Shown here piece by piece: positions 2,549 to 37,955 of a DNA stretch of 64,000 nt (positions within the stretch are counted from its first letter, which is position 1; the number at the start of each line of letters is the position of its first letter). This DNA is from Candidatus Campbellbacteria bacterium (GTDB taxonomy: Bacteria; Patescibacteriota; Minisyncoccia; Phycocordibacterales; EsbW-18), in NCBI GenBank assembly GCA_024653945.1, contig JANLIT010000002.1, positions 11,940-75,939 of the forward strand, read 5' to 3'. Below the pieces are notes generated by a model, which worked only from the letters and a program-made list of their open reading frames with translations, did no database searches and had not been told where the DNA came from. The translations under genes were made by a program, and so were the position numbers.

Positions 2549-3070
2549 TTGAGTACCCCAAACAGAAACCGCGTCCGCATGAATGCATTAATCACCGCAA
2601 CCGAAATGCGTGTGATGGGTCCCGATGGAGAAAATCTCGGTGTACTTCCACGTGAAGAAGCTCTCGCCAAAGCGCGCGAGTTCGGACTTGATCTTGTTGA
2701 AATTTCTCCAAACGCAACTCCTCCTGTGGTAAAGATTATCGAATACGGAAAATACTTGTACGAACAAGCAAAGAAAGCTCGTGAAAACAAGGCGAAGTCG
2801 CACCAAACCGAGACCAAGAGCGTGCAGGTCAAAATCGGTACCTCCGAGCACAGCATGGGTATCAAAGCCAAACAAGCATCACAGTGGCTTGCTGAAGGTC
2901 ACCGCGTGCGTTTTGAGCTCTATTTACAAGGCCGTGCTAAGTACTTGGACAAAACCTTCCTCAAAGAGCGTATGGAACGTTTCCTCAAGTTCATCACCGT
3001 GGACTTCAAAATTGCCGAACCTGTCAAACAGGCACCTAAGGGTATGAGTATGGTGCTTGAGAAAAAATAA
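2549..3070 (+). CDS. infC: translation initiation factor IF-3
   Basis: INEEI-like N-terminus (MNALITATEMRVMGPDGENLGVLPREEALAKAREFGLDLVEISPNATPPVVKI), C-terminal domain SVQVKIGTSEHSMGIK. Track start is TTG at 2549; an in-frame ATG lies at 2579. A non-AUG start is classic for infC. Confidence 0.9.
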   Translation: MSTPNRNRVRMNALITATEMRVMGPDGENLGVLPREEALAKAREFGLDLVEISPNATPPVVKIIEYGKYLYEQAKKARENKAKSHQTETKSVQVKIGTSEHSMGIKAKQASQWLAEGHRVRFELYLQGRAKYLDKTFLKERMERFLKFITVDFKIAEPVKQAPKGMSMVLEKK

Positions 3071-3083
3071 CTCTCCGCTCCTG

Positions 3084-3170
3084 CCCTATTTTTGAGAACA
3101 CGAAAACCGCCTGCTGGCGGTTTTCTCTCTCCGACGTCGCCACGCCTACAAAGTTTCTCAAAAATAGGGC
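3084..3170. repeat. palindromic terminator-like element (family also at 21444, 31153, 36855) directly 3' of infC
   Basis: ccctatttttgagaa...aaaaccgcc-tgct-ggcggtttt...ttctcaaaaataggg: outer inverted repeat enclosing a terminator hairpin. Confidence 0.6.
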
Positions 3171-3340
3171 TTCGCTACGTACACGCCGGACCCTGTATGC
3201 AACAGGCTCCGCCTATTAAAAATACAGAAACCACTTGCAAAAAGACAATAAAAATGTACTATGGGTAAGCCCATGTGGGCCTCTTTTTATGAGGACGGGG
3301 CTTCCAACCTCTCACTTCTAACCTCCAACTTCCACTTTAT

Positions 3341-3526
3341 ATGAAGACCAACAAAGCATATTCAAAACGACTTCGCATCACGAAAAACGGTAAGGTTATC
3401 GGCCGAAAAGCTGGTGGCAACCACTACAATGCTAAGGAGTCCCGAAGCACACAACTCGCACGCAAGCGTTCACGAATCATTTCACTTACACCAAAAATCC
3501 GCACGCGTTATTTGCCGTCAAAGTAG
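3341..3526 (+). CDS. rpmI: 50S ribosomal protein L35
   Basis: 61 aa basic protein MKTNKAYSKRLRITKNGKV..RKAGGNHYNAK between infC and rplT (conserved infC-rpmI-rplT order). Confidence 0.85.
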   Translation: MKTNKAYSKRLRITKNGKVIGRKAGGNHYNAKESRSTQLARKRSRIISLTPKIRTRYLPSK

Positions 3527-3574
3527 TTTTCTTATTTCCAACGTCTAACATCTAACTTCCAACTTCCACTTTAT

Positions 3575-3946
3575 ATGACCCGAGTAAAACGAGGAACAAT
3601 TGCACTCAAACGCCGTCGAAATGTGCTCAAACGAGCAAAGGGTTTTCGTAATACACGAAAGAGTAAGGAGAAGCTCGCAAAGGAGTCACTCGTAAAGTCA
3701 GGAATGCACGCATTTGCACACCGCAAAGATAAGAAAAATGATTTCCGTCGATTGTGGCAAACACGCATTTCCGCAGCGGTTGCTCCCCACAACATTTCAT
3801 ACAGCAAATTCATTGGTCTCGTGAATGCAAAAAAGATAACACTGAACCGCAAGATGCTCGCAGAAATCGCGATGACACATCCTCAAACATTTGAACGTAT
3901 CGTCAAACAAGTTCTCGCTCCTCAAACAAAGACAACCGCAAAATAA
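3575..3946 (+). CDS. rplT: 50S ribosomal protein L20
   Basis: MTRVKRGTIALKRRRNVLKRAKGF..RLWQTRISAA..ISYSKFI: L20 signature. Confidence 0.9.
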   Translation: MTRVKRGTIALKRRRNVLKRAKGFRNTRKSKEKLAKESLVKSGMHAFAHRKDKKNDFRRLWQTRISAAVAPHNISYSKFIGLVNAKKITLNRKMLAEIAMTHPQTFERIVKQVLAPQTKTTAK

Positions 3947-7704: not shown

Positions 7705-9003
7705 TCACCCCCTTTCGTGTGCGTAGAAGTGGATAACGTCGCACTTATGCCTAGACGGTATCCTGTAGTCACCGCCCTCTACGAGAGCTAGGCCAATGCA
7801 ACTGTCGCAGTAATTCCGATTGCGACAGACCATGCACTGCTGCATCTCTCGAAGAGAGAACTGAGTGAGTACCTGTTTTCGTCGTCGGAGAATCTCGGCC
7901 AATGACTCAGAGGAAGTATCCCCCAACGGTACCCTGAGATCGAGACAAGGATAGACAACGCCCCGTGGGTCAATGGCTATTTGATCCCTACCAGCAAAAC
8001 ACACAGTGTGATTTCGACAGTCGCGATACTTCTTCTGGGTAGGAAAACCGCCGATGCGATCCAGAAAAGGCTTAAACTTCTCTTCCATCTCCTGATACGA
8101 AAGACGGAAAAGCACTTCTTTTCCTGGGCCACTACGGTTCGGTGTAATGTATGGACTGTAGAAAATCGACGCTCCGATTTTCGTTAGAACATCGTGGACC
8201 TCATCGATTCGGTCGATGTTGTGTTTTCCAACCAAAACCGAGAGTGTGACGGGTAGTCCGCACCGAAGCATCTGACGGACGCTCTCCTTGAGTCGATCAA
8301 ATCGATATACCGACCTGGTTAACTCTGAGTACCCAGTCCGTGTTTCATACACCGAAACCTGGATGTCGTACAGGTGAAATCGTGACAACTTTTCGACGGT
8401 ACCCAGAGTGAGAGCCGTTCCGTTCGTTTTTAGTTCCAGAACGAAACCAATCTCCTCAAGATCTTCCATCACAGAGATAGCGTCTCTGCGGAGAAAGAGC
8501 TCTCCTCCTGTAAGAAGAACAAAAACCACTCCCGCCGACTTCAATTCTTGTCCCAACTTCTGAATTCTGTCCCTGGACAAGCCCTTCTCATGGAAGTTGT
8601 CCAAATAGCACCAACTACAACGCTGGTTGCAAAGATACGTCAGCTCGAGATTCGCGTTGATAACCTGCCACTCGCGTATTGCGTAAGCAGACAACTCCTC
8701 TAATGCCGTCTTTTGGGTCCGAATCACTTTTTGTGGGAACCTGTACGCCGACTCATCAGACAAGGAACGAATCACTTCTTTGATTTCAGCAAAATCTGTT
8801 GTAATGTCACCACTATCCTCTGGACGAAATTGCTCCAGAAAATCGTTGGTGAGTTGATGCTGTGGTTCGTTGACAATTCTAACTGCCTGACTTGCAAGAG
8901 GACCCTCGAAAAAAGCTGATTTACGGGTCGTCTTATTAATGATGAATGAAGCGCCCCGAAAATCTCGTGAGATAAGGTTTTTCACGGCCACACCCCTTTT
9001 CAA
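7705..9003 (-). CDS. radical SAM enzyme with C-terminal SPASM-type auxiliary cluster domain and ~100-aa N-terminal extension (possible peptide-recognition domain)
   Basis: CNQRCSWCY (CxxxCxxC) about 120 aa in; C-terminal Cys cluster CFAGRD..YPC..CMVCRNRNYCDSC; GC higher than surroundings. Confidence 0.85.
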   Translation of the reverse strand: MKRGVAVKNLISRDFRGASFIINKTTRKSAFFEGPLASQAVRIVNEPQHQLTNDFLEQFRPEDSGDITTDFAEIKEVIRSLSDESAYRFPQKVIRTQKTALEELSAYAIREWQVINANLELTYLCNQRCSWCYLDNFHEKGLSRDRIQKLGQELKSAGVVFVLLTGGELFLRRDAISVMEDLEEIGFVLELKTNGTALTLGTVEKLSRFHLYDIQVSVYETRTGYSELTRSVYRFDRLKESVRQMLRCGLPVTLSVLVGKHNIDRIDEVHDVLTKIGASIFYSPYITPNRSGPGKEVLFRLSYQEMEEKFKPFLDRIGGFPTQKKYRDCRNHTVCFAGRDQIAIDPRGVVYPCLDLRVPLGDTSSESLAEILRRRKQVLTQFSLREMQQCMVCRNRNYCDSCIGLALVEGGDYRIPSRHKCDVIHFYAHERG

Positions 9004-13796: not shown

Positions 13797-15188
13797 ATGC
13801 GAATACTGTTTGTCTCAAAGGACACTATGGCCGGAAACCTTGCTTTCCTCTTAAAAAAAGAGGGGCATAGCGTACGACTTTTCGTTGAAGAACCAGACGG
13901 CAAAAGAAACTTCAACGGCCTCGTCTCCCATACAGATGATTGGAAAAAAGATCTCACATGGGTTGGAAAAGATGATGGGTTAATCATATTTGACGACATA
14001 GGATTCGGAAAAATACAAGACAAACTAAGAAAGGACGGGTATACCGTTTTTGGTGGGTCATACGAAGGTGAGAAACTCGAAATAAATCGATACATCGGAC
14101 AAGAGATTTTTAGACACCACGGAATAAAAACGATGCCCCTTCTTGATTTCCACCACATTGATGATGCGGTGGCTTTTTTAAAAGAAAATCGAGGTATGTG
14201 GGTTCTCAAACAAAATGGTCCTGAGCGTGAATTTAATTACGTCGGGCAATTTGAAGACGCAAGCGATACGATTAGTGTCTTGGAGAATTACAAAAAAGCA
14301 AACGGTAGTTATTCTCAAGGAACCATTTCGCTTCACCAAAGAGTCGTCGGTATTGAGATGGGGGCTGCTCGATATTTCAATGGTAAGAACTGGGTGGGAC
14401 CAACTGAAATTAGTCTGGAACACAAGCGTCTCTTCCCTGGGGACGTCGGACCAACCACGTCAGAAATGGGAACCCTTGCATGGTACGACGACAATGAAAA
14501 CAACAAATTATTTAAAGAGACCCTTGCGAAACTAAAACCCTTTCTACAAAAAGCAGACTTCCGGGGTGACTTCAGTATCAATTGTATTGTGAATGAAGAG
14601 GGTGCGTTCCCCACAGAGGCAACCGCACGTTTTGGTTGCCCGATAGTACACCTCCAGACAGAATTCCAGGAATCGCCGTGGGGAGAGTTCTTATACGCAG
14701 TGGCGAGCGGTAAACCATACAACCTCAAATGGAAAAAAGGGTACGGCCTCGTTGCGATAGTGGCTGTCCCACCTTTCCCGTACCATTTCAAAAATCATCC
14801 AATCACAAGCCGTGGTATGGATGTTTTTTTTAATGATATGACAGAGGAAGATTTTACACACATACACTTTGAGGAAATTTCAAAAAGAGACGACAAGGAG
14901 GGCGGTGGGTACTACATCTCTGATGACAGGGGGTACGCCCTGTATGTGACCGCTATGGGTGAAACCGTGCTTGAAACCCAACGATTACTTCATAAACGAA
15001 TCAAAAAAATACACATTCCTAAAATGTTTTATAGAAATGACATTGGAAGTAGTTTTATGAAATCTGACGCAAAAAAGCTGAAGGAGTGGGGATACCTCAA
15101 CGGTGTTTCAAACAAACCTCAAATACGTAAATCTCACGTGCTCGTGCACACAAAAAGAAAGCAGCACCCCTCACGGAATGCTGCCTGA
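13797..15188 (+). CDS. ATP-grasp family enzyme (PurD-like fold), function uncertain
   Basis: 463 aa; N-terminal Rossmann-like MRILFVSKD..GH.V, central ATP-grasp-like region; no unambiguous PurD signatures. Confidence 0.5.
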   Translation: MRILFVSKDTMAGNLAFLLKKEGHSVRLFVEEPDGKRNFNGLVSHTDDWKKDLTWVGKDDGLIIFDDIGFGKIQDKLRKDGYTVFGGSYEGEKLEINRYIGQEIFRHHGIKTMPLLDFHHIDDAVAFLKENRGMWVLKQNGPEREFNYVGQFEDASDTISVLENYKKANGSYSQGTISLHQRVVGIEMGAARYFNGKNWVGPTEISLEHKRLFPGDVGPTTSEMGTLAWYDDNENNKLFKETLAKLKPFLQKADFRGDFSINCIVNEEGAFPTEATARFGCPIVHLQTEFQESPWGEFLYAVASGKPYNLKWKKGYGLVAIVAVPPFPYHFKNHPITSRGMDVFFNDMTEEDFTHIHFEEISKRDDKEGGGYYISDDRGYALYVTAMGETVLETQRLLHKRIKKIHIPKMFYRNDIGSSFMKSDAKKLKEWGYLNGVSNKPQIRKSHVLVHTKRKQHPSRNAA

Positions 15189-15210
15189 GAATGTCTCCTT
15201 GACGTGCCCT

Positions 15211-15747
15211 TTAGAACATCGAGGAGACGGACTTGATGATCCACTCACCAGCCTCGAGGCCAGTGAAGACTGCGAGCGTCCACCACGTATTGGCGATGAC
15301 GAACGAGACGAGGAAGATTCTCCAGTCCCGAGCCGTCATGCCGTTGTACTGGTGTGCCCCACGGCGCATGTACACGGTGCAGATGAACGGGTCAAACTTC
15401 ACCGAGAGGATCAGCATGACCATCCAGTCGCCGCGGCGCATCGCCCACTGCATCACCTTGTGAAAGAACTTCTCCTTCTCATCGGCATCGCGAACCTCTT
15501 TGAGCGTCTCGATGCCCAACCAGTCGGTACGCGACCAGTCGTAGAAACGAATGGTTGCGTAGCAAACCGCGAGAGACAGAACCCACATGATGGCCGCGCC
15601 GACGAGCGTACCAAAGTACAACATGACGGCCGGGTAGAGCAGGTAGTCAAACCCCTGCACCATCAGGAAGTTGGCAGTAAGGCCAACTCCCAGAATGCCC
15701 AGACGCTCTTTCCATGTCTTGGGCTGCTGAGTATTGGACATTACCAA
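15211..15747 (-). CDS. GC-rich integral membrane protein, unknown function
   Basis: 178 aa, 4-5 TM segments, SD AAGGGAGG before the ATG, ~58% GC. Confidence 0.5.
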   Translation of the reverse strand: MVMSNTQQPKTWKERLGILGVGLTANFLMVQGFDYLLYPAVMLYFGTLVGAAIMWVLSLAVCYATIRFYDWSRTDWLGIETLKEVRDADEKEKFFHKVMQWAMRRGDWMVMLILSVKFDPFICTVYMRRGAHQYNGMTARDWRIFLVSFVIANTWWTLAVFTGLEAGEWIIKSVSSMF

Positions 15748-15850
15748 CCTCCCTTTCGGATCACAACATGAGGTTCATCCCCATGTTTTCTGTTGTCTAT
15801 TATAGCATAAAGAAGTGTGTTGTCAAGACACTCCACAGGTCCTGCCCGAG

Positions 15851-15942
15851 CAGCTAAAAAGCCCTTATTTAAAAGGATTTTCTATCCCCTATAGACTAAA
15901 TTATCTGGGTCAATTGAAATCGTGTCTGTTGTGCGTTTGACC
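15851..15942 (-). repeat. ~90-bp direct repeat, copy 1 (3' end of the M16 peptidase gene plus downstream hairpin)
   Basis: ~85% identical to 18310-18397; encodes ..TDTISIDPDNLVYRG* and the downstream cagctaaaaagccc. Confidence 0.65.
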
Positions 15943-17162
15943 ACCACAACTGCTGGAAACGATGCAAAAATTGTCTTCGCGGCATCTTGGATATCTTTTT
16001 TAGTTACCTTAGCGTAACGAGATTCTATATCAAGAAATTCTTCTGGGTGCTCGGCGTGAAGTGCAAACCACGAAAGAGATTCTGTCCGTTCCTGTGCCCT
16101 TTCATTTTTTACATAATAATTAAAGATACTTCTTTCTCTCGCTGGTTCAAGTTCCCCATCAGTACACTCCTCTGTGCACATACGTAATACCTCACGGCAC
16201 ACAATATCAAAGAGTTCGGGTAATAATTCTGGTGTAGTCCCTGAACTAATTCCAAACTTTCCACACTCAGAGTCAGATGACACAGAAGCTGACGTATCAT
16301 ATGAAAGACCTTTTTCATGTCGAACTGCTTTAAAAAGACGTGATGTCTTACCACCACCAAGAATAGTTGCAAGCATATCAACCGCAGGTTTTGTTTCATC
16401 AAAAAACGTTGGTGCGCGGTAGGAGATAAGTACTCGGTTTTGATCGGCCTGAGAATCGTCAATAAAAGAAAGACTTGGTGAGCGTATATCGCTAAATTGA
16501 AATAAGGTGGGAGAGATACTTGTATTTTTTTCTTCGTCCCAAAAAAATATTTCTTCAACAAGTTTTACAATACTTTCAAAATCCATATCGGCGACAACAC
16601 TCAAAACCGCATTGTGCGGAAGATATCTTTTGGTCCAGAAATCAATCGCATCTTTATGTTGTACATTCATCACCTCTTCGGGAGTCCCAAGAACTCTTCG
16701 TGCAAAAGGTGTTCCAGAAAAAAGAAGTGACTGTGCTTTGTCATATGACAAGGAAGAAGATTGTGATTCGTGTCTTTTTGCTTCTTGAAATACAACCTTC
16801 TGTTCGCGTATAAAATCTTCTTCTCGTAGGAGTGGTTGAAACGTTGCTTCAAAAACATATTTTAAAGCAGAATCCAGAGTATGGCTTGGCACAAGAGCCC
16901 AGTACCAAACATCTTCATACCAGGTCTTTCCACCTCCTCGACCACCACATTCAGAGACAAGATTTTCTAATTCGTTTTTTGTAGGATAGTTTTTTGTTCC
17001 ATCCAACACGAGGTGCTCAAGAAAATGAGCAACTCCGGGCTTTTCTCCGTACACGGCGCCCGCCTTCAAACGTATCGAAACGGCACTGATAGTGCTCCCC
17101 GCCCTTCGTTCGTGGATGAGTTTCATGCCATTTTTAAGCCGTTTTGTGGTGATATTTTGCAT
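15882..17162 (-). CDS. M16-family (pitrilysin-like) zinc peptidase
   Basis: inverted zinc motif HFLEHLVLDGT (HxxEH) about 45 aa in; 426 aa. Confidence 0.85.
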   Translation of the reverse strand: MQNITTKRLKNGMKLIHERRAGSTISAVSIRLKAGAVYGEKPGVAHFLEHLVLDGTKNYPTKNELENLVSECGGRGGGKTWYEDVWYWALVPSHTLDSALKYVFEATFQPLLREEDFIREQKVVFQEAKRHESQSSSLSYDKAQSLLFSGTPFARRVLGTPEEVMNVQHKDAIDFWTKRYLPHNAVLSVVADMDFESIVKLVEEIFFWDEEKNTSISPTLFQFSDIRSPSLSFIDDSQADQNRVLISYRAPTFFDETKPAVDMLATILGGGKTSRLFKAVRHEKGLSYDTSASVSSDSECGKFGISSGTTPELLPELFDIVCREVLRMCTEECTDGELEPARERSIFNYYVKNERAQERTESLSWFALHAEHPEEFLDIESRYAKVTKKDIQDAAKTIFASFPAVVVVKRTTDTISIDPDNLVYRG

Positions 17163-17380
17163 ATACGTGGATTATACCCCAAAAAAATATAAAAAAGAAA
17201 ATGGTGGTGTTTGGTGGTGTTTACCAATTACCACCATTGATCAAAAAATGTTTTCTCACCATCTAGGAATGAGTTTCTCAGGATGGTAAGTGGTCCAAAA
17301 CAGAGGACACCCACCTGCGCAGACGTTAAATTTTTCATACTCAACACGCCTCTGTGCCCGTCTGACAAATAAATAAGGAA

Positions 17381-17440
17381 GGCTACAGTTGGGACAGAAA
17401 ACCCAATCTTTGGGTATCTTTGTAGCCTTCCTTTTAATTC
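17381..17440 (-). terminator. intrinsic terminator after 17434..17967
   Basis: 13-bp stem aaggaaggctaca...tgtagccttcctt followed by a T-rich run on the minus strand. Confidence 0.55.
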
Positions 17441-17967
17441 GCCTTACGGAAATCCTTGATGATTTTGTCTGCACCGTCTCGGTCGATGATGTCCCACGCA
17501 CGTTTATAGTTCTCGTTTGTAGTGTTCCGTGCCACCTTCAACTGCCCACCGGACAGAATAAGCGACAGAATTGCATATGTCATCACGTGGTTGCGTACCT
17601 TTTGGCTTTCATTAGGAAACGGCAACGGCGCGTGTTCCGAACCAGACATCAATCGATGGGTGAGTTCATGGCACAGGGCAACAATGAACTCTTCTTCCGT
17701 GTATCGACTTTTGAGAACCAACGGACGCGAATGGTCTCGTATAGTCCCTGAAAGAACATAGCACTCAATGTGTGGCTCGAATGTGAGTCCTGTGATTTGC
17801 TCCATGTGAGCCATGAGTGCCGAACCAATCTGAGCCCAAATGCGCTCATAGTTGTCCCTGCGGGATTCCAGTTCCTCCTTTGACGGCGGCGTCCAAGTCG
17901 GATAGGCCTCAATTGCCTCCGCTTCGTGGAGACGATTGAGTTCCTCACTTGTGTGAAAGGTAATCAT
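17434..17967 (-). CDS. GC-rich hypothetical protein with HExxH motif (ALCHELTHRL)
   Basis: ATG at 17967 with SD GGAGAA 5 nt upstream (the track's TTG start is 17979). Confidence 0.5.
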   Translation of the reverse strand: MITFHTSEELNRLHEAEAIEAYPTWTPPSKEELESRRDNYERIWAQIGSALMAHMEQITGLTFEPHIECYVLSGTIRDHSRPLVLKSRYTEEEFIVALCHELTHRLMSGSEHAPLPFPNESQKVRNHVMTYAILSLILSGGQLKVARNTTNENYKRAWDIIDRDGADKIIKDFRKAN

Positions 17968-18038
17968 GGTGTTCTCCAATTAAAGATGCCCCCCGCGTAC
18001 TTATCAGGGGGGCAAGTGGTTCGGTAGAGACTTCAGTC

Positions 18039-18146
18039 GCTGGCAGGGAAGCTGTCCTCGCTGTAGTCGTCCTCCTCCGCGTCCATCAACGGACCGAACA
18101 TGGCCGTATCCTCGGTCGTGTCCCGCTCGTCGGGGTCGGGCATGTG
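18039..18146 (-). CDS. possible 35-aa acidic peptide MPDPDERDTTEDTAMFGPLMDAEEDDYSEDSFPASD
   Basis: SD GGAGGTGAGAACAGGTG before the ATG; ~62% GC patch; under the ORF-track length cutoff. Confidence 0.25.
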
Positions 18147-18309
18147 ATTGGGCACCTGTTCTCACCTCCTTTAGTGGGCTGGTTGCCAGTACTATCTACC
18201 TACAAAGATACAGAAGACACGAATAAAAGTCAAGTGCGAAGGGGCACCCCGTTCCAAGCACAAGGGCTTGCCGGGATTAAGTCAAGCAACTTAAGGACTC
18301 CACCAGAAC

Positions 18310-18397
18310 AGCTAAAAAGCCCCCTACGTAGGGGCTTTTCTAGCCCCTATAGACCAATTTGTCTGGGTCAATTGAAATAGTATCCGTTGGGCGTTTA
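18310..18397 (-). repeat. ~90-bp direct repeat, copy 2 (orphan copy of the M16 peptidase 3' end: encodes TDTISIDPDKLVYRG* out of context, plus the hairpin aagcccctacgtaggggctt)
   Basis: alignment with 15851-15942 read directly; lies immediately 3' of the LOG-like gene. Confidence 0.65.
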
Positions 18398-19015
18398 ACC
18401 CCTGAGTTCGCCTTCTTCGCCTGGGCGGTAGCTTGTGGTCATCCGGTCTGCCAATTTGTCCTGCTTCACCAGCTCAATCACTTTTGCCACAAGTTTTTTG
18501 GGGTTCGTGTCAAAAATAACTCGTTCGTGTGAACGATTGCTTCGCTCCAGAATAATTTTCATGGTTTCGTCTGTCGTCCATTCCCCTTCCAAGATACCAA
18601 TCGGCTTATTGTCTTCAAAGGCAATCGTAAATTCATGAATGGTTCCAATGCGTCCGCACCCAAAGAGTACGGCGTCTGATGAGCGTGTAAGAATAAGATC
18701 GCGTCCTGAATAGCCGAAACCTGTGTACACAATCATGTCCATGTAGTCCAACGGCAGGCGAAATGCTTCAACGTGCTCACGTTCAGACGCTGCCGGAGAA
18801 AAACCAATTGATTTGCCACCTGCTTCTTTTGCTCCAATGGCCGCCCACAGAGGAAAACCTGTCGTGGCACCCGTTACAAGAACCGCGCCATTTGCTGCGA
18901 TTTCGTGTCCAAGCTCTTTAGCAACTTCATATGCACGTGAACCACACGAAGCGGTCTCAGCAGCACCTGATACACAAATTTTTATATCGTGTTCTGTTCT
19001 TTTTCGCAAAGACAT
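18395..19015 (-). CDS. LOG/TIGR00725-like Rossmann-fold nucleotide-binding protein
   Basis: ICVSGAAE..GAVLVTGATTG..GFSPAASE..GFGYSG..LFGCGRIGTIHE pattern. Confidence 0.55.
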   Translation of the reverse strand: MSLRKRTEHDIKICVSGAAETASCGSRAYEVAKELGHEIAANGAVLVTGATTGFPLWAAIGAKEAGGKSIGFSPAASEREHVEAFRLPLDYMDMIVYTGFGYSGRDLILTRSSDAVLFGCGRIGTIHEFTIAFEDNKPIGILEGEWTTDETMKIILERSNRSHERVIFDTNPKKLVAKVIELVKQDKLADRMTTSYRPGEEGELRG

Positions 19016-21014: not shown

Positions 21015-21443
21015 TTACAAACGAAAACTTCGACCTATGGGGGGCCGAAGTACTCGTGTGGGGGCTATCTCAGATGAGTTACCTAGCATGTGCTAGGTGG
21101 GTGTCCTAAGTACATACACCGGAGCGTATGGTTTGAAACAAAATCAGACTCCCTGTAACAATTAATTTGATCTAGATAATATCCAAAATAACCCCTACAC
21201 CAATCCTACTCCCTATCAAAGAACACTGACAAGGGGGATAATGCTTTGCACGACACTACACAAAAAAGTGAAGTATGTGTGTCAAAAAATCCGCCATGCA
21301 GACGGATTTTTTGTTTTGTCTGTTTCAAATAATTGACAGAAATTTTCTTTTTATTTGAGATGTGTATTTTTCTATCGTGTTTATGTCTTTTGAATTTAAA
21401 ATAGAACTTTTGTCTTACAAAAGTTCGTGTACGGAGCAAGCTT

Positions 21444-21525
21444 CTATTTTTGAAAGACTTTGAAGGCACGGCGGTGCCGGAGAGAGAAAACCGCCTGCTG
21501 GCGGTTTTCGTGCTTTCAAAAATAG
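21444..21525. repeat. palindromic terminator element (same family as 3084, 31153, 36855) directly 3' of ndk
   Basis: ctatttttgaaagactttgaaggcacggcggtgccggagagagaaaaccgcctgctggcggttttcgtgctttcaaaaatag. Confidence 0.65.
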
Positions 21526-21539
21526 AAGCAAGCGTAGGG

Positions 21540-22124
21540 CTAATTGTCAATTCCAAATCGTTTATATGAGTAAATTGGGCTTGTTCCAAACCAGTAGTCT
21601 ATCTCGTGCTTCGCTTCTTCGGGTGTTTCTGACGCATGCACCAGGTTCATAATTGCTCGTTTCTCGGCATTTGCCAGTACCGGAGAGTCAACGGAAAAAT
21701 CACCACGAATGGTGCCCATTTCTGCAAGGTACGGGAGAGTTGGACCGACAATTTTGCGCACCATGTCAACAGCATGCACACCTTCAACCACCATTCGTAC
21801 CGATGGTCCCATAATAAGGTATTCAATGAGCCACCCCCTCACCTTCTGGCCTATTTCCATGGTGTCTTTAGTTCCCATCTCCTCAATTGCGTCAATACCA
21901 TACTTCTCATATGTGCCCATGGTCTTTTCTCCAAGGCGGTTAATCCATTTTGTATCCTTAGGATAGTGGTCGTTCACACGGTCTTCTGTCGCCTGAAACA
22001 TCTCAAGAGCAACGATCTTCAAATCCCGTTGTTCAAAACGCTGAATAATCTCTCCCACAAGCCCCTTTCGGACTCCGTCGGGCTTTACCATCACAAATGT
22101 TTTCTCTTCTCTGGGGTTTCGCAT
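21540..22124 (-). CDS. ndk: nucleoside-diphosphate kinase-like protein, with insertions
   Basis: FVMVKPDGV..GLVGEII.RFE..G..IVALEM...NLVHASE (NDK active-site His context, NIIHGSD-like); 194 aa, longer than canonical. Confidence 0.7.
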   Translation of the reverse strand: MRNPREEKTFVMVKPDGVRKGLVGEIIQRFEQRDLKIVALEMFQATEDRVNDHYPKDTKWINRLGEKTMGTYEKYGIDAIEEMGTKDTMEIGQKVRGWLIEYLIMGPSVRMVVEGVHAVDMVRKIVGPTLPYLAEMGTIRGDFSVDSPVLANAEKRAIMNLVHASETPEEAKHEIDYWFGTSPIYSYKRFGIDN

Positions 22125-30107: not shown

Positions 30108-30503
30108 CTACAGGATCGATTCCTCCTGAAAGGTGGGGATGTCCATACTCATGTTGTGCAACTCCTCGGCACCCCATGTTTGTGATTCTGTGTCGGTGTG
30201 GTGCGGACCACGGTCCTTGTGCCGAATAGCCCGTACAACGACCCACTGCTCGTCCTTAAAGTGCCACCGCGGATCCTTCTGTTTCGTGAACCACATTCCG
30301 ACTTCTCCGCCAGGAATCTTGAAGGAAACGACGACAAACTGTCTTCCTTCAGATTCCTCTTCTGTGGAGGTCATCGCCAGCACAACTGGCAACACGATGC
30401 GCCATTCGAAGACGCGATCCTGGTTGATGATCGCAGTAAGCACCATCAGGCCAAGCCGTTCCGGCACCGAGAACTGTGTTTCTTTTCCACGAATCTGCAC
30501 CAT
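30108..30503 (-). CDS. island hypothetical protein (131 aa)
   Basis: SD AAAGGAGAAG 8 nt before the ATG; terminator hairpin with T-run just downstream. Confidence 0.4.
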   Translation of the reverse strand: MVQIRGKETQFSVPERLGLMVLTAIINQDRVFEWRIVLPVVLAMTSTEEESEGRQFVVVSFKIPGGEVGMWFTKQKDPRWHFKDEQWVVVRAIRHKDRGPHHTDTESQTWGAEELHNMSMDIPTFQEESIL

Positions 30504-30746
30504 GGCGCTTCTCCTTTCCGGAGTAGACCGACAGGATTGTCGGCAGGCCTTTCCGGCCGTTTGGTACTGCTACCCGAACACTCGTCGGGGTTAATCTGGC
30601 AACACACTATGCTTATCTGCAAAGAAAGTCAAACCAAACGTCCCGCTTTCTCGGTCCTGTTGTGTTGGACACTGAGTGTCCAACACTCGGATACTGGAAA
30701 CAAAAGAGCCGCCCGAGAGCAAACGGCTCTTTGGACAGCCCAGACC

Positions 30747-31007
30747 CTACTTGGAAAGGATGGCAACTCCGATTATCAACTTCCGAGTAGCACCCCTATC
30801 TCGCAGAGTCCTCGATTTCTTGATCTTCTTCAAACTAAGGATTGCGTGGTGTTGCTTGCCCTCCTCATCTTGGACACTCAAATGCAGAGTTCCCATACCG
30901 CCCTCGAAAAGCCAGTTGGCAAGAGCAGAAGAAACAACCTCCTGCCCACCCAAAAGCGTTCCCGCGATACCAATGTTGCTCTGTGCGGTTACTTTTGGAT
31001 ATAGCAT
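30747..31007 (-). CDS. island hypothetical protein (~86 aa from the internal ATG MLYPKV..)
   Basis: SD AAAAAGGAGAAGG before the ATG at 31007; terminator hairpin downstream. Confidence 0.4.
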   Translation of the reverse strand: MLYPKVTAQSNIGIAGTLLGGQEVVSSALANWLFEGGMGTLHLSVQDEEGKQHHAILSLKKIKKSRTLRDRGATRKLIIGVAILSK

Positions 31008-31152
31008 TTCCTTCTCCTTTTTCCAAGGTCTATAGTTAAACAAATTCTGATAGGACAATACGCTTCTAGATAAGCAAAGTCAAACCAAACGTCCTTGTAT
31101 TTAAAGTCCCGCCCAGACATTGTCTGGGCGGGGCGTCGTACGAAGCGAGTCT

Positions 31153-31230
31153 CTATTTTTGAAAGACTTTGTAGGCACGGCGGTGCCGGAAAGAGAAAAC
31201 CGCCACCGGGCGGTTTTCGTGCTTTCAAAA
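31153..31230. repeat. palindromic terminator element directly 3' of secY
   Basis: ctatttttgaaagactttgtaggcacggcggtgccggaaagagaaaaccgccaccgggcggttttcgtgctttcaaaaata. Confidence 0.65.
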
Positions 31231-31249
31231 ATATGAGACGAGTGAAGAG

Positions 31250-32533
31250 CTAGTATTCACGTAATGACACTTGCGCGTCAATCTTTTTCACCAAATCAAT
31301 AATAACCGAGACGGCGATGAGGAGCCCTGTACCACCAACTGCAAGAGAGGTAATGCCAGTCAAACCTTGCATAATGAGAGGCAAAATAGCGATAACACCC
31401 AGAAATGAAGCGCCGAGAAGGGTTAACCGAGTGAGAATGTTTGCAATGTGTTCGGATGTTGATTGACCTGGGCGAACACCGGGAATAAACGCACCGCCCC
31501 GCTGAAGATTCTTTGAAATGGCATCTGGATCAAAGGTAACCGCGGTGTAAAAATACGTAAACAAAAACACAAGAAGGAAGTACGCGACACCGTACGACCA
31601 CCCATTATTCAAAAACCACTGCACGCCAGCAACCATCTTCTGCACGATTGGATTAGCAACTCCCGCAAGAAAGTTTGCAATCATACCTGGAAACAAGAGG
31701 ATGGAAAGCGCAAAAATGATTGGCATCACACCCGCTTGGTTCACGCGAAGTGGTAGGTATGTTGACACACCTCCGTATACTTTGTTGCCACGAATTTGTT
31801 TTGCGTAGGTAACAGGAATTGGTCGTTCTGCCTCTGTTACAATCACAACACCAATAACAATGATGAGTCCAACAACCAGAAAGGCGAGGTACATTGGCAA
31901 CTGTTCGGGTGTGAATGAAAATACGGTTGTTTGTAATGCGCTTGGAATACGTGACACAATACCTGCAAAGATGATGAGTGACATTCCGTTACCAATGCCA
32001 AATTCAGAAATAAGTTCACCAACCCACATGAGGAGTACCGAGCCCGCAACAATCACGATAATGTTGGTGATGAGTGACAAAGATGAGAGATCACCTATAA
32101 CCCCGTTTCGTTGGAGTAGTGTAATAAATCCAAATGCAGAGAGGGCGGCAAGTGGAACAGTGAGCAACCTAGAGTATTGTGCAATACGACGTCGTCCCGC
32201 CTCCCCTTCTTCATGAAACATCGCCTTGAGTTGTGGTGAAAGAATGGTGAGCAACTGCATGATGATTGAACCAGTGATGTATGGACCAACTCCGAGCATC
32301 ACAATTGAAAGACCTGAAAGTCCTCCTCCTGAAAAAAGGTTGAGAAGACCGAAAAATTGATTGTTTGCAAAAAACTGAGAAAGCGCATTAATATCAACAC
32401 CTGGAATTGGAATTGCGGCAAACACGCGCGTCAGTGCGAGTCCTGCAATAACAAAAAGAATGCGAGTTCGCAATTGGCGATCCCCCATAATAATGGAAAA
32501 TTTTTGTACAAAGTTTTTCATCATACGTAACAA
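31250..32533 (-). CDS. secY: preprotein translocase subunit SecY
   Basis: 10-TM SecY; likely true start is the MMKNF ATG near 32524. Confidence 0.9.
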   Translation of the reverse strand: MLRMMKNFVQKFSIIMGDRQLRTRILFVIAGLALTRVFAAIPIPGVDINALSQFFANNQFFGLLNLFSGGGLSGLSIVMLGVGPYITGSIIMQLLTILSPQLKAMFHEEGEAGRRRIAQYSRLLTVPLAALSAFGFITLLQRNGVIGDLSSLSLITNIIVIVAGSVLLMWVGELISEFGIGNGMSLIIFAGIVSRIPSALQTTVFSFTPEQLPMYLAFLVVGLIIVIGVVIVTEAERPIPVTYAKQIRGNKVYGGVSTYLPLRVNQAGVMPIIFALSILLFPGMIANFLAGVANPIVQKMVAGVQWFLNNGWSYGVAYFLLVFLFTYFYTAVTFDPDAISKNLQRGGAFIPGVRPGQSTSEHIANILTRLTLLGASFLGVIAILPLIMQGLTGITSLAVGGTGLLIAVSVIIDLVKKIDAQVSLREY

Positions 32534-33078: not shown

Positions 33079-33733
33079 TTTGTACGTTGTGCGTCTTAAT
33101 TTTCTTCGTGAGTTGTGAGAGTGCTTTAATTGTTGCGGTTGCGTTGTTGAGTTTGTTCTTACTACGAGAAAGAATCTTTGCACCAACACCACGAACTCCT
33201 GCGAGTTCAAGCACATCACGTACTGCACCTCCAGCAATAATACCGCGTCCTGGTGCTGGATAAAGCTTTACAATACCACTACTGTACTTCACTTGTACTT
33301 CGTGTGGAATTGAGCCGTCTTCAGTTTGTGAAATAACAATTTTATTTTTGAGTGCGCTTCGGTATGCCTTCTCTACTGCAAGTGCTGTGTCGCCCGCCTT
33401 ACCTGTGCCTACACCAACGGCACCACGGTGGTTTCCCGCAACAACACACACGCTGAAGCTAAAACGACGTCCTCCAGCAACCACACGAGTCACACGGCGA
33501 ATATCAATGATGCGCTGATCAAATTCAGGTTTAATACGGGGTGCGCGTCCGCGAGGAGTGCGACGAGAATTTTTCTGCATACGTCGGTCTTCACGTGATG
33601 CATTTACTGGCGCACTTCCTTTTGGAGCCACTACAACAACGTCTGCCTCAATGTCGGCAGCAAGTGTGTCCTCCACAACAGCGACCTCTGTTGTTTCAAT
33701 CTCGTTTTCTTTTGTACGAATATCGTCGGGCAT
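33035..33733 (-). CDS. rpsE: 30S ribosomal protein S5, with ~70-aa N-terminal extension
   Basis: core ..VTRVVAGGRRFSFSVCVVAGNHRGAVGVGTGKA..; no L30 gene between this and rplO. Confidence 0.9.
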   Translation of the reverse strand: MPDDIRTKENEIETTEVAVVEDTLAADIEADVVVVAPKGSAPVNASREDRRMQKNSRRTPRGRAPRIKPEFDQRIIDIRRVTRVVAGGRRFSFSVCVVAGNHRGAVGVGTGKAGDTALAVEKAYRSALKNKIVISQTEDGSIPHEVQVKYSSGIVKLYPAPGRGIIAGGAVRDVLELAGVRGVGAKILSRSKNKLNNATATIKALSQLTKKIKTHNVQKPKHEARSTKHETN

Positions 33734-33804
33734 AAATAATGGAAGTTGGAGGTTTGAGGTTAGAGGTTGGATGAGTTAGTGATTAGTTTTAGTTTGGTTA
33801 TTTG

Positions 33805-33864: not shown

Positions 33865-34212
33865 TTAGAACTTTAATCCTCCTTTACGTGCACCATCTGC
33901 AACTTCTTTAATGACACCCGTGTATGCAAATCCTCCTCGATCAAATACTACAGCTGTAATCTTTTTTGTAAGTGATGTCTTTGCAACAATTTCTCCGAGT
34001 TCAAATGCTTTTTCTTTTGCAGTTCCCTTCTTCATTCCCTTTGTCGTACCGGCAACAAGCGTCATTCCTTTTGTATCATCAATAACTTGAAGCGTTGTGA
34101 ATCGATTTGATTTAAACACAGCCAAACGTGGGCGTACTGATGTACCAGAAATCTTCGCGCGGATACGTCCTTGTCGTCGAACTCGTTTTTCTTTTTTTGT
34201 TGGGGCTTTCAT
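33865..34212 (-). CDS. rplR: 50S ribosomal protein L18
   Basis: ..RPRLAVFKSNRFTTLQVIDD.. Confidence 0.9.
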   Translation of the reverse strand: MKAPTKKEKRVRRQGRIRAKISGTSVRPRLAVFKSNRFTTLQVIDDTKGMTLVAGTTKGMKKGTAKEKAFELGEIVAKTSLTKKITAVVFDRGGFAYTGVIKEVADGARKGGLKF

Positions 34213-34300
34213 ATAAAGTTGAAGTTGGAAGTTTGAGGTTGGGAGTTGGTTTTTGTTTTCTTTGTTATTTGCTATTTGTCATTTGCTATTTCCCCTTACT

Positions 34301-34835: not shown

Positions 34836-34970
34836 CTATTTTTAAATTCGAAATACGAATATCGAAATTCGAAACAAATTCGAAGTTATAGATTTTAAAG
34901 TTTTAAGCATTTGAATATTCATATTTTGTGCTTGTTTCGAGCTTCGTGCTTCGATATTCGTGCTTATCTT
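34836..34970. repeat. ~130-bp r-protein leader repeat upstream of rplF
   Basis: tttttaaattcgaaatacgaatatcgaaattcgaaacaa...catttgaatattcatattttgtgcttgtttcgagcttcgtgcttcgatattcgtgcttat. Confidence 0.65.
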
Positions 34971-35363: not shown

Positions 35364-35414
35364 GGTAGTAAGTAGTATGTAGAAAGTAGTAGGTAGAAAG
35401 TAGTAAGCAAAAAA

Positions 35415-35684
35415 TTACCAAGATGCCTTCTTAATACCTGGAATCATTCCTTTATTTGCAAGTTCGCGGAAACAAATACGACAGAGACCGAATTCGCGCA
35501 TGTATCCTCGTGGGCGACCACATTTAAAACAACGGTTTTTTGTTCGAACTGGAGATGCGTTCTTGCGCAATGCCTGAAGACCCTCGTAATCGTGGGCCTC
35601 TTTCAATGCAGTTCGCTTTGGAGCGGATTTTGCCTGCATCACTGCTCTTTTTTTGTCTCGTGCAATAATTGCTTTTCGGGCCAT
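35415..35684 (-). CDS. rpsN: 30S ribosomal protein S14 (zinc-ribbon type, CxxC..CxxC)
   Basis: [13 protein letters not shown]...[38 protein letters not shown]; ATG at 35684 (track ORF starts at 35726). Confidence 0.85.
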
Positions 35685-35912
35685 ATACTTTTTTCCAAAA
35701 AAAATTCTGCCTCTCGATGTGTCCATGGACCAATTCGGACGAATTGGCCGGCTGACAGATAACGAGGCGGTGGTCTCCTCCGGCGCCTATTGGCTCTGAG
35801 AGGACAAGCTCCCTATTTAGAAGCCCCACCATACTACCAGAAGTCTCCAAAAAGGGCAAGAAAAAGAGAAGCCCCGCTAGCACAAAGTGCGCCGGCGGGG
35901 CGGAAAGAACAA

Positions 35913-36761
35913 CTACTTTGACCAGGATTGTCTGCCCTTTGCCGAAGCAATTCGGCACCACAACAGGGATTGGGCTATGAGCCGATTTCGATGCCGTCGC
36001 TCTTCCTCATCACGAAGGTCTCTTGGTGTCTTGTGCTTACCACCACCGAGGAGAGCCCCAACGGCAAGGCTGTTTATCAACCACTGTTCCTTGTATTTCC
36101 CGAACAATTCATCCGACACAAATTCAAGGTAGTGGAGAATCTGAGACGCTTGATCTCGTTCAGAAATCTTCCTGCTCTTTTCCTTTTCGGATGGTAGCCG
36201 AGTTCCACCGGTAAACGTGAGCATATCGGCAGAACCCCAAAGCGCAAGTGCTCGAACCAGTGGCCCTGATTCCTGATAGTGGAAGTGCCACGGGCGCCCG
36301 TTCGTCCTAGGACCCACTAGAAGCATGGATATCGCTTCTCTCCAGGTGTGAAATTCCTTGCAGAGAAACTGCTGGATTCGAGACGGGTACGGAGGACGTA
36401 GCAGACATTCGTGCACAACCCCAAAGAACGAAATGAGGTCATTACGAAGAATGGCCGACCCTTCTTCCTTTTCGTCTCGAGAAAGCAGGTAGGTCTTGCC
36501 CAAAACCTCATCTGAAGCGATGACTCTGCGTGCTGTGTCCGCGACCCTGCCCTCTTCACCAACTTCGCGAAACACATTGAGCAGAAAGCGGGCCTTGTCT
36601 TTGAACAACTGACGCCCTTCCTCATCCCCTTCGATGGGCGGGTCATTCCAAAGACTGCCACAGGCGTAGAGCAGGCCTATGGCCTCCGCTTCCGTACTGA
36701 CCCTCTGCCAGCACTCCTCGAACTGCTCCCACGTACTAATGACCAACAACTCTTTTTTCAC
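35913..36761 (-). CDS. GC-rich (~58%) 282-aa hypothetical protein inserted between rplE and rpsN
   Basis: GTG start with SD AAAGGAGATCCACC; composition step relative to the flanking r-protein genes. Confidence 0.5.
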   Translation of the reverse strand: MKKELLVISTWEQFEECWQRVSTEAEAIGLLYACGSLWNDPPIEGDEEGRQLFKDKARFLLNVFREVGEEGRVADTARRVIASDEVLGKTYLLSRDEKEEGSAILRNDLISFFGVVHECLLRPPYPSRIQQFLCKEFHTWREAISMLLVGPRTNGRPWHFHYQESGPLVRALALWGSADMLTFTGGTRLPSEKEKSRKISERDQASQILHYLEFVSDELFGKYKEQWLINSLAVGALLGGGKHKTPRDLRDEEERRHRNRLIAQSLLWCRIASAKGRQSWSK

Positions 36762-36854
36762 GGTGGATCTCCTTTCTATAGTGTCGCTCGATGTTTGAGC
36801 GACGGGTCGATCCGCCGTTTATTCTCCACACACAGACACACAAGTCAAGCTACG

Positions 36855-36897
36855 AAGAAAACCGCCTGCTGGCGGTTTTCGTGCTTCTACAAAATAT
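36855..36897. repeat. partial palindromic terminator element directly 3' of rplE
   Basis: gaaaaccgcctgctggcggttttcgtgcttctacaaaatatgag; shares the ttcgtgctt..aaaatatgagacgag tail with 31200-31240. Confidence 0.55.
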
Positions 36898-36912
36898 GAG
36901 ACGAGCGGAGAG

Positions 36913-37485: not shown

Positions 37486-37490
37486 ATCTT

Positions 37491-37822: not shown

Positions 37823-37955
37823 ATTTTTTAAATCCGAAATCCGAATGTCGAAATCCGAAACAAATTCGAAATCATGAGTGTTGGGGTTTTTAACATTTGA
37901 ACATTCATATTTTGTGCTTGTTTCGAGCTTCGTGCTTCGATATTCGTGCTTATTC
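37823..37955. repeat. ~130-bp r-protein leader repeat upstream of rplX
   Basis: near-identical to 39441-39570. Confidence 0.65.

Follow-up and report, generated by a model that had tools for sequence, protein, structure and literature searches.

Within a 64-kb stretch of Campbellbacteria DNA (the window, by which we mean the whole stretch analysed), the conserved gene block NDK-DUF2238-beta-CASP-LOG-like closes with its LOG-like gene, and the interval between this gene and the GARS-like/HK genes differs in content in every relative examined. Here the interval holds, in the direction of transcription, a short repeat copy directly after the LOG-like stop, a cassette encoding an acidic peptide and an HExxH protein, an M16 peptidase gene whose 3' end forms the other repeat copy, and a gene for a membrane protein (Table 1). 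The M16 gene, the HExxH gene, the acidic ORF and a strong terminator thus lie between the copies, as the initial annotation had listed them. No Rfam families were found in the window.

Table 1. Features of the interval around the two repeat copies (window positions)
Feature	Position	Strand	Details
Membrane protein gene, GC-rich (56%), 178 aa	15211..15747	-	driven by the promoter at 15766..15826
Perfect consensus promoter and 5' leader	15766..15826	-	TTGACA-16-TATAAT with TG; downstream of copy 1
Repeat copy 1	15845..15943	-	end of the live M16 gene, 20 codons and stop (VKRTTDTISIDPDNLVYRG, stop), then intrinsic-terminator hairpin, -11.1 kcal/mol
M16 (insulinase/pitrilysin family) peptidase, 426 aa	15882..17162	-	PF00675 (7e-18), PF05193 (2e-27)
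M16 own promoter region	17163..17200	-	-10 TATAAT at 17171-17176
Terminator-like hairpin, then T-run	17200..17238	-	just upstream of the M16 promoter; -17.8 kcal/mol, z -3.6
Cassette terminator	17370..17433	-	13-bp outer stem and inner hairpin, then T-rich run; -27.2 kcal/mol, z -4.2
HExxH protein, 177 aa, GC3 57%	17434..17967	-	predicted small zincin-like metallopeptidase of unnamed family
Acidic ORF, 40 aa	18033..18155	-	directly precedes the HExxH gene; 62% identical to L085 (E 1e-11)
Cassette promoter, predicted	18205..18233	-	TTGACT-17-TATCTT; TTGACA-17-TATAAT/TATACT at the matching position in phage contigs
GC-rich (57%) spacer, 67 nt	18236..18302	-	between copy 2 and the phage-homologous cassette
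Repeat copy 2	18303..18401	-	orphan M16 tail (VKRPTDTISIDPDKLVYRG, stop), then stronger hairpin, -22 kcal/mol, z -2.4
LOG-like / SLOG cluster-4 (TIGR00725-like) gene	18395..19015	-	native C-terminus intact

A repeat search recovered two direct-repeat blocks at the same offset of 2458, one of 68 nt at 85% identity (15875-15942 and 18333-18400) and one of 20 nt at 90% (15845-15864 and 18303-18322), which a gapped alignment merges into a single unit of ~99 nt, ~81-85% identical between copies and edged by GGT(C/T)AAA and TC(G/T)GG. The ~90-bp direct repeats reported initially are therefore real and slightly wider, copy 2 spanning 18303-18401 rather than 18310-18397. Sixty of the 99 nt are M16 coding sequence in the correct frame. 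When copy 1 was compared with the whole window by blastn, its sole match was copy 2 (E = 7.6e-20, 81% over 99 nt including gaps), all remaining matches having E > 0.06; the 17-mer common to both copies occurs just twice in the 64 kb, and tblastn detected one M16 gene and a 19-codon relic, nothing further. No third copy was found downstream of M16 in the window. The sequences flanking the two copies are unrelated to each other, and the identical runs between them are short, the longest measuring 17, 14 and 11 nt. An assembly artefact was rejected as the source of the repeat because the copies have no exact run longer than 17 nt in common.

Copy 1 is the true 3' end of the M16 gene, consisting of its terminal codons, stop and hairpin, whereas copy 2, as the initial annotation also recognised, is an orphan that still encodes the tail and starts where the LOG-like gene ends, within its final codon and stop. 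Its first 6 nt (GGTTAA) are that codon and stop, so that the homology to copy 1 reaches 6 nt into the LOG-like gene (GGTTAA versus GGTCAA). The native LOG-like gene likewise ends in GGTTAA at the related locus L082, and the M16 tails there and at L081 contain GTTAAG and GTTAAA, respectively. As far as these relatives can stand in for the true parental sequences, the LOG-like stop and the M16 tail appear to have been joined through microhomology. Fusion of the LOG-like protein to the M16 tail through frameshifting or readthrough was dropped as an idea, since the sequence shows no obvious slippery site.

A multi-copy terminator element of ~110 nt (TA[AG]CTCTCCG...) stands behind the LOG-like stop in both L081 and L082; in the window it occurs after four other genes but is absent after the LOG-like gene, where copy 2 has taken its place. 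A terminator scan found the copy 2 hairpin to be the sole good terminator after the LOG-like gene; it probably terminates the NDK-DUF2238-beta-CASP-LOG-like transcript and shields it from the cassette, and this role as terminator or insulator may be the reason why copy 2 has persisted. LOG-like homologues at 62-77% identity occur at 80 metagenome loci; M16 adjoins the LOG-like gene at none of them, and these loci show only that the conserved block stops there.

The window M16 translation combines the Peptidase_M16 and M16_C domains with the inverted zinc motif HxxEH (HFLEH), which places it in the M16 family, and its orthologues are 47-69% identical. A protein scan of genome contigs for M16 returned none at first, and an alignment-based scan added only L090 (47% identity). 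Exact-protein look-ups for the window M16, LOG-like and HExxH proteins returned no context on record. The M16 promoter region is the only upstream sequence that can still be aligned with L081 and L082. On the other side of the gene, the promoter and leader beyond copy 1 are homologous to L127 12525-12576, where they drive an unrelated gene; the membrane protein that they drive in the window is unassigned by PADLOC, NCBIfam and PHROGs, and a 66%-identical homologue lies elsewhere in L090.

The LOG-like protein shares no more than 83-85% identity with that of even the closest relatives. L081 and L082 show the order LOG-like gene, variable genes, M16, with a single M16 and one tail only, and they have neither the orphan tail nor the HExxH cassette. 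The initial annotation had proposed searching related genomes for an empty site, and this arrangement supplies one in part. L127 and L128 lack M16 at this place and instead keep the last 24 nt of an orphan M16 tail together with the hairpin and the same downstream promoter. Their relic begins 24 nt before the stop, as against 60 nt for copy 2 (any extension of the L127 relic beyond the 24 coding nt is not significant), and the two breakpoints thus point to no common crossover site.

The cassette between the copies differs from its surroundings in composition (50.9% GC; window 44.2%, M16 41%), and its terminator fold was matched in stability by 0 of 200 shuffles. The possible 35-aa acidic ORF of the initial annotation starts at a GTG and has 40 aa. 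It is a genuine, conserved gene, since all other contexts found also have it ahead of the HExxH gene, with an ORF of 38-40 aa at the corresponding place in L085-L089. A mechanical ORF of 81 aa at 17256-17501 is probably not a gene, as it overlaps the HExxH 3' end, crosses the cassette terminator and has no family match. The pair of acidic ORF and HExxH gene recurs in four phage-like contexts (five contigs, L085-L089). Besides NinG/Rap and phrog_850 (1e-139), L085 encodes an endolysin-like protein, and the 88-aa and SLT-like genes that precede the pair there are shared with L086. No phage genes surround the cassette in the window, and the spacer separating it from copy 2 matched no locus compared.

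The cassette is phage-derived and moron-like, and not a moron in place. Phage morons are independent promoter-gene-terminator units with deviant GC (PMC3594210); the acidic ORF/HExxH unit resembles them in its own predicted sigma-70-like promoter, its strong, likewise predicted terminator, its raised GC and its occurrence on phage-like contigs, but in the window it stands alone in a bacterial chromosome, outside any phage or prophage and without other phage genes.

By its HExxH motif and third metal ligand, and by its modelled structure (pLDDT 96.6, helical zincin-like fold), the HExxH protein is predicted to be a zincin metallopeptidase in the general sense. An alignment of its family (n = 59) shows E101, H104 and H127 to be invariant and H100 to be conserved in at least 90%. 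It shares with small zincins (SprT-like, IrrE/M78, DUF6782, minigluzincins such as proabylysin, PPEP/M34) the HExxH motif with an invariant His 23 residues downstream, a length of ~180 aa, the helical fold and weak profile and fold matches, but none of these matches is significant: the best Pfam matches to named zincin families have E of at least 0.002 and concern 4 of the 59 family members, the window protein itself having no Pfam match, while a PDB profile search gave E of at least 0.09 and Foldseek E of at least 0.03 overall and at least 0.3 against PDB. The protein thus falls outside all named zincin families. PADLOC, NCBIfam and PHROGs assigned neither cassette protein, and the HExxH protein had no match in IMG/VR, INPHARED phages or PLSDB plasmids.

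Over the 19 codons in which the two copies can be compared, 9 of 57 coding positions differ, seven changes being synonymous and two nonsynonymous; pS is 0.51, pN 0.046 and pN/pS 0.09 (Fisher p = 0.0004, a test on these 19 codons only). The coding part of copy 2 has no indel and keeps its stop codon, and stem bases of the hairpin differ between the copies, yet both stems pair. Synonymous-biased changes together with stem changes that preserve pairing indicate that copy 2 diverged as part of a functional second M16 allele, its orphaning being recent. The residue found in L081 is also that of copy 2 at each of the two nonsynonymous sites (the P also in L082 and L083), which assigns these changes to the branch of the live M16 gene. 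The tail pS is near the whole-gene M16 pS against species-level relatives, 0.60-0.79.

We therefore consider it probable that copy 2 is the recent relic of a second, diverged and functional M16 allele, illegitimately joined to the LOG-like stop within a hypervariable interval that also received a phage cassette. On this reading the orphan tail is an ordinary scar of allele replacement and illegitimate recombination, and the copies do not represent the ends of a mobile element. The relic would comprise the last 19 codons, the stop and the intrinsic terminator of an M16 allele from another Campbellbacteria-like lineage, tied to the LOG-like stop codon by an illegitimate, microhomology-type junction, and the same rearrangement history would have brought in the moron-like cassette that now separates the relic from the live M16 gene. 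In a single step, the DNA separating the LOG-like gene from M16 may have been exchanged for a piece of donor DNA that began inside the donor's M16 tail. Alternatively, a transient tandem of two M16 alleles, arising for example by recombination within M16, may have been resolved by a deletion that removed the DNA between the LOG-like stop and codon ~408 of the first M16 allele. It is the order of events that we infer; this history is reconstructed rather than observed, from the repeat, the selection signature, the overlap at the junction, the disappearance of the ancestral terminator, the relatedness of the cassette to phages and the variable content of the interval. Neither an intact M16 with a tail identical to copy 2 nor an intermediate arrangement was present among the genomes examined.

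One of the two readings offered by the initial annotation was that the copies are attL and attR of an integrated element. They would then bound either a ~2.46-kb element made up of cassette and M16 or a decayed prophage, with the M16 3' end as target and a replacement end as part of the cargo. Elements that enter gene 3' ends typically leave direct repeats spanning terminal codons and terminator, the 17-nt identical stretch would be a candidate core, the cargo is phage-related and the orphan copy is absent from L081 and L082. A diverged, selection-shaped tail is also expected if an integrative element brings its own replacement for the gene end; the selection test thus does not by itself exclude site-specific integration, and the exclusion rests on geometry, the absent recombinase and the L127 breakpoint. 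The ORFs in and beside the module encode M16, the HExxH protein, the acidic peptide, the LOG-like protein and the membrane protein, with no integrase or recombinase among them. The orphan sits upstream of M16, whereas insertion into the M16 3' end would leave it downstream; the supposed element would have to contain its own target gene and to have undergone a further deletion of another M16 body, and its left end is joined to the LOG-like stop by a 5-6 nt overlap rather than lying within an intact target gene. No attP was found, a degenerate M16-tail pattern being absent from 2.9 million viral contigs and from the cassette-bearing phage-like contigs, and no tRNA was found as a possible att target. 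With the independent relic of L127 and L128 showing another breakpoint, we regard integration as unlikely.

Tandem duplication in place, in which the M16 segment was doubled, the upstream copy lost its body and the orphan tail has been decaying since, would leave the 2458-nt period and direct orientation that are seen, and microhomology at the LOG-like stop suits a later deletion. A neutral orphan, however, is expected to accumulate ~3 nonsynonymous changes per synonymous one, and the observed seven synonymous and two nonsynonymous differences, with both of the latter assignable to the live copy and the ancestral residues retained in the orphan, show purifying selection and so argue against duplication followed by decay. 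The pS is moreover about species-level deep, yet L081 and L082 carry one M16, and the sequences beside the two copies are unrelated. The duplication-mediated cassette replacement suggested initially as the other possibility thus survives as a replacement or rearrangement relic of a second M16 allele; duplication in place we judge improbable.

There is also some slight chance that M16 tail, terminator and promoter together act as a landing pad, a homology anchor or hotspot for cargo exchange, with copy 2 having arrived together with the HExxH cassette. At L127 and L128 the orphan tail, hairpin and same promoter and leader precede a different, unrelated membrane-protein gene, and L082 has yet another GC-rich gene with a consensus promoter directly after M16. 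Against this, only three or four genomes are involved, their breakpoints differ, the homology downstream of copy 2 has no significant extension into the promoter (340 of 500 shuffles score equally well), and the L090 homologue of the membrane-protein gene lies elsewhere with no M16 relic upstream; independent deletions that spare essential regulatory DNA account for the same facts. It is accordingly doubtful that the M16 3' end, terminator and downstream promoter form a recurrent recombination anchor of Campbellbacteria at which cargo such as phage-derived cassettes and genes for GC-rich membrane proteins is swapped without a recognisable recombinase; if they did, the orphan tails in the window and in L127 and L128 would be footprints of such swapping. 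A generic REP- or MITE-like intergenic repeat, named initially as the observation that would overturn the attL/attR reading, or mere chance similarity, has next to no plausibility, since the window does hold multi-copy intergenic repeat families but this repeat is strictly two-copy, in-frame M16 coding sequence over 60 of its 99 nt, and matched at an E of 8e-20.

The relic that we consider probable has parallels among known systems. Like gene-end remnants (pseudo-att sites or orphan 3' fragments), it is a short orphan 3' end with a terminator beside foreign DNA, joined through a few nt of microhomology and absent in relatives, in an interval whose content varies among related genomes. It differs from them in that the orphan derives from another allele than the resident one, lies upstream of the resident, is fused exactly to the neighbour's stop and probably took over the terminator role of a lineage-typical element. 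Prophages and islands that target the 3' ends of tRNA or other genes and supply a replacement end share with it the imperfect direct repeats containing terminal codons and terminator, with phage-related cargo between them; in the present case a recombinase is lacking, the orphan occupies the wrong side of the target gene, no attP was found and the breakpoint of the L127/L128 relic differs.

This locus is a well-documented example rather than a new mechanism, and it leaves current understanding unchanged. It also flags a conserved two-gene phage cassette inside a Campbellbacteria chromosome, encoding an acidic 40-aa peptide and a protein from a new family of small zincins, for which there are ~545 remote relatives. 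To our knowledge, exchange between related Patescibacteria is seldom resolved to the nucleotide level. Metagenomic surveys describe gene-level exchange among related members as the dominant route of horizontal gene transfer in this group (PMC12455944). The M16 relic offers a clean, datable footprint of such exchange, in which an imported gene-end relic can be told apart from a local duplicate by the ratio of synonymous to nonsynonymous changes and by compensatory changes in the hairpin, and in which the relic has probably been reused as the terminator of a neighbouring operon.

The repeat reported in the initial annotation consists of two copies of one ~99-nt unit, running from GGT(C/T)AAA to TC(G/T)GG. 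A repeat search returned it as a 68-nt direct repeat (85% identity) and a 20-nt piece (90% identity), both with an offset of 2458, which join in an alignment needing one small gap, in the hairpin loop. On the right, similarity ends ~12 nt past the T-run, and alignment of the copy flanks gave no significant extension into the promoter region. All relevant genes of the locus lie on the minus strand. Copy 1 comprises the last 20 codons and stop of the M16 peptidase gene, followed by the hairpin; copy 2 begins within the final codon plus stop of the LOG-like gene, translates as VKRPTDTISIDPDKLVYRG* and falls outside any ORF of at least 30 aa. The observation was borne out by blastn of copy 1 against the 64-kb window (copy 2 the sole match, E = 7.6e-20; next best E = 0.06), by a 17-mer common to both copies that occurs only twice in the window, and by tblastn, which found a single M16 gene and a 19-codon relic.

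Features of the locus and of the wider window (window coordinates unless a relative is named)
Feature	Position	Strand	Remark
Copy 1 / copy 2, ~99-nt unit	15845-15943 / 18303-18401
68-nt repeat	15875-15942 / 18333-18400
20-nt repeat piece	15845-15864 / 18303-18322
M16 peptidase, 426 aa	15882-17162	-	Pfam Peptidase_M16 and M16_C domains; HFLEH motif
LOG-like gene	18395-19015	-	SLOG cluster-4, TIGR00725-like
Perfect consensus promoter and ~45-nt leader	15766-15826; L127 12525-12576	- (window)	homologous, window and L127/L128
Membrane-protein gene	15211-15747	-
222-aa ORF	15103-15771	+	antisense to membrane-protein gene
Antisense ORF in L128	12504-13079
Cassette match to five contigs	17579-18188
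Predicted cassette promoter	18233->18205	-	TTGACT-17-TATCTT
~110-nt double-hairpin element	3060-3190	+	repeat search
~110-nt double-hairpin element	21420-21548, 31130-31262, 36845-36925	-	repeat search
~110-nt double-hairpin element in relatives	L082 9272-9400; L081 ~8403-8420		start only in L081
131-nt family, 7 copies	34838-34968, 37481-37611, 37824-37954, 39445-39575, 43945-44075, 44536-44666, 54148-54278
7-nt periodic arrays, further sites	1455-1491, 3302-3344, 3536-3578, 33731-33776, 34210-34291, 35364-35414, 38325-38370, 38688-38790, 40672-40717, 54972-55045, 62195-62296
Further GC-rich ORFs	30198-31004	+	53-54% GC
Further GC-rich ORFs	35524-36761, 41758-42150, 49986-50519, 51795-52490	-	53-54% GC

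The M16, HExxH and LOG-like proteins have 100% identical counterparts in a Candidatus Campbellbacteria MAG, on a 238-kb contig. LOG-like homologues of 62-77% identity occur in 80 metagenomic loci; these retain the block NDK - DUF2238 - beta-CASP RNase - LOG-like gene, carry rplT/rpmI/infC after it and lack M16. The closest relatives all share the block. Past the LOG-like gene, the L082 locus has DUF6624 (opposite strand), M16 (63% identical), a 63%-GC 199-aa gene, and further on SET, HK and, later, L20; L081 has two small ORFs, DUF6624, M16 (69%) and a transglutaminase-core gene. No M16 gene is present at the locus in L127 (closed 811-kb Campbellbacteria genome CP064977) or L128, where the block is followed by an acetyltransferase, small ORFs, a 165-aa membrane protein, AdoMetDC, a GARS-like gene, a methyltransferase and HK. 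The window itself has the relic, the cassette, M16, a 178-aa membrane protein, a GARS-like gene, SET and HK. Because this content differs in every relative, the interval from the LOG-like gene to the GARS-like gene or HK is a plasticity zone.

Directly after the LOG-like stop, the Campbellbacteria relatives L081 and L082 have TA(A/G)CTCTCCG(C/T)TCG..., with which a ~110-nt double-hairpin terminator element begins. The window carries copies behind infC, NDK and two further genes, starting exactly at their stop codons; after the LOG-like gene the element is gone, exactly from the stop codon onward, and the window state is therefore derived. A terminator scan gave the relic hairpin as the sole convincing terminator now following that gene. 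Alignment with L081 and L082 upstream of the live M16 gene covers just ~40 nt (the -10 region), which, with the stop-codon breakpoint, places the window-specific segment at 18394 to about 17200. At the left junction, copy 1 homology runs through GGTTAA, with which the LOG-like gene ends (final codon and stop). Since the L082 LOG-like gene natively ends in GGTTAA, and M16 tails read GTTAAA (L081), GTTAAG (L082) and GTCAAA (copy 1), 5-6 nt are common to both junction partners; this overlap is the mark of a putative microhomology-type illegitimate join.

The 19 codons shared by the copies hold nine differences, seven synonymous and two nonsynonymous (sites S = 13.7, N = 43.3; pS 0.51, pN 0.046, ratio 0.09; Fisher p = 0.0004 on 19 codons). 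At both nonsynonymous positions the orphan matches L081, with P (shared by L082 and L083) and K, and the live M16 gene is in the derived state, T and N. The orphan carries an intact stop codon and no indel; hairpin stem bases differ between the copies and both still fold (copy 1, -11.1 kcal/mol; copy 2, -22 kcal/mol, z -2.4). Such differences are what two orthologous gene ends show after diverging under purifying selection, and not what a local duplicate would show while decaying as non-coding DNA. The tail pS is close to the whole-gene pS of the window versus L081, L082 and L127 (0.60-0.79), which puts the postulated second allele at about the distance of another species in the group. The orphaning of copy 2 must have been recent relative to this presumed allele divergence.

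A second, independent orphan tail occurs in L127 and L128, as GAGAATCTGGTCTATAGGGGATAG (..NLVYRG*), with a hairpin, a TTGACA...TATAAT promoter and a leader behind it; together these can be aligned with window 15905->15766, corresponding to copy 1 and its downstream promoter. Significant M16 homology covers the 24 nt preceding the stop in L127 and the 60 nt preceding it in copy 2, and orphan M16 ends thus arise repeatedly, with differing breakpoints. Each keeps its terminator, L127 its downstream promoter too; no orphan tail was found in L081 and L082, where M16 has a single tail. The leader contains a small conserved hairpin (ACATGGGG...CCTCATGT) just 5' of the Shine-Dalgarno sequence, and the homologous promoter and leader are predicted to drive GC-rich membrane-protein genes that, on comparison, are unrelated between the window and L127/L128; the L082 post-M16 gene is likewise unrelated. 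The 222-aa ORF antisense to the window's membrane-protein gene, with strong tblastn matches in the L090 locus and a counterpart called by the gene caller in L128, was rejected as an artefact of the conserved opposite-strand gene.

The cassette between copy 2 and M16 matches five phage-like contigs (L085, L086/L087, L088 and L089) at 68-73% DNA identity. In all five, a 38-40 aa acidic ORF lies directly 5' of the HExxH gene; the alignment includes a common Shine-Dalgarno sequence and start, with a TTGACA-17-TATAAT/TATACT promoter upstream in L085, L086 and L088. Phage morons are defined by their own promoter, own terminator and deviant GC (PMC3594210). The window cassette resembles them in its predicted promoter, a very stable predicted terminator past the HExxH stop (-27.2 kcal/mol, z -4.2) and its GC (50.9% vs 44.2% for the window), but stands alone in the chromosome. 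L085 (Logan contig SRR14194075_27851, span 1-20531) encodes NinG/Rap, a TROVE/Ro-like phage RNA-binding protein (phrog_850, 1e-139), Band_7, an endolysin-like protein and many small ORFs, the phage-type genes being followed by a block of glycosyltransferases and an epimerase; it shares with L086 88-aa and SLT-like genes 5' of the acidic ORF/HExxH pair. At 43 kb, the contig is close to the ~43.7 kb mean reported for Paceibacteria prophages (PMC12455944), and it is likely a Patescibacteria phage or prophage. The HExxH protein has four close and ~545 remote homologues and no matching family in Pfam, PHROG, NCBIfam or PADLOC. All of 59 family members share E101, H104 and H127, and nearly all share H100. 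The confident AlphaFold model of the HExxH protein (pLDDT 96.6) shows weak likeness to known structures that are always zincin peptidases (PPEP/M34, M61, M1, SprT-like, IrrE). We read the protein as a predicted small zinc metallopeptidase that belongs to an unnamed, phage-associated family and has a conserved acidic peptide as its partner.

The double-hairpin element (TAACTCTCCGCTCG...GAAAACCGCC-loop-GGCGGTTTTC...GGCACCGCCGTGCC...CAAAGTCTTTCAAAAATAG) resembles a terminator module, or a small-RNA-like element, that is conserved and dispersed. An Rfam search of the window gave it no family, and no hit of the tRNA gene search or Rfam scan over window 1-64000 reached threshold. Arrays of 7-nt periodic motifs (CGAAATC/TTCGTGC, GTAGTAA/CTACTTT, TTGGAGG, ATTTGTC), the 131-nt family included, occupy many intergenic regions, largely within an apparent ribosomal-protein gene cluster, and may be promoter-proximal. 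The further GC-rich ORFs (GC3 up to 63%; window GC 44%) have no Pfam or PHROG family and may be further acquired cassettes; two GC-rich patches adjoin copies of the double-hairpin element.

On the best-supported reading, a second M16 allele left copy 2 behind as a scar, by one of two possible routes. In a single event, a donor fragment beginning inside the donor's M16 tail, and bringing the phage cassette from 3' of that gene, would have replaced the DNA from the LOG-like stop to the M16 promoter, ancestrally the terminator element and DUF6624-type genes. Alternatively, a transient tandem (LOG-like gene ... M16 allele 2 - terminator - cassette - M16 allele 1), formed for example via recombination within M16, would have been followed by a microhomology deletion of all DNA between the LOG-like stop and codon ~408 of allele 2. 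The single replacement takes fewer steps; the tandem explains why an M16 tail adjoins an M16 gene. That recurrent M16 tails serve as an exchange site, a landing pad, is improbable, and this reading rests on three or four genomes. Duplication in place, with copy 2 decaying as non-coding DNA, is contradicted by specific tests, among them the seven-to-two substitution pattern, the intact stop, the lack of indels and the paired hairpins. Specific tests likewise contradict site-specific integration, and with it the initial annotation's attL/attR sites of an integrated element. A REP element fails too, the repeat being a two-copy family in a whole-window search that also found several true multi-copy intergenic repeats. 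The finding is real, well characterised and ordinary in kind: copy 2 is what allele replacement and illegitimate recombination left next to a cassette of phage origin, within a variable stretch of a Patescibacteria genome.
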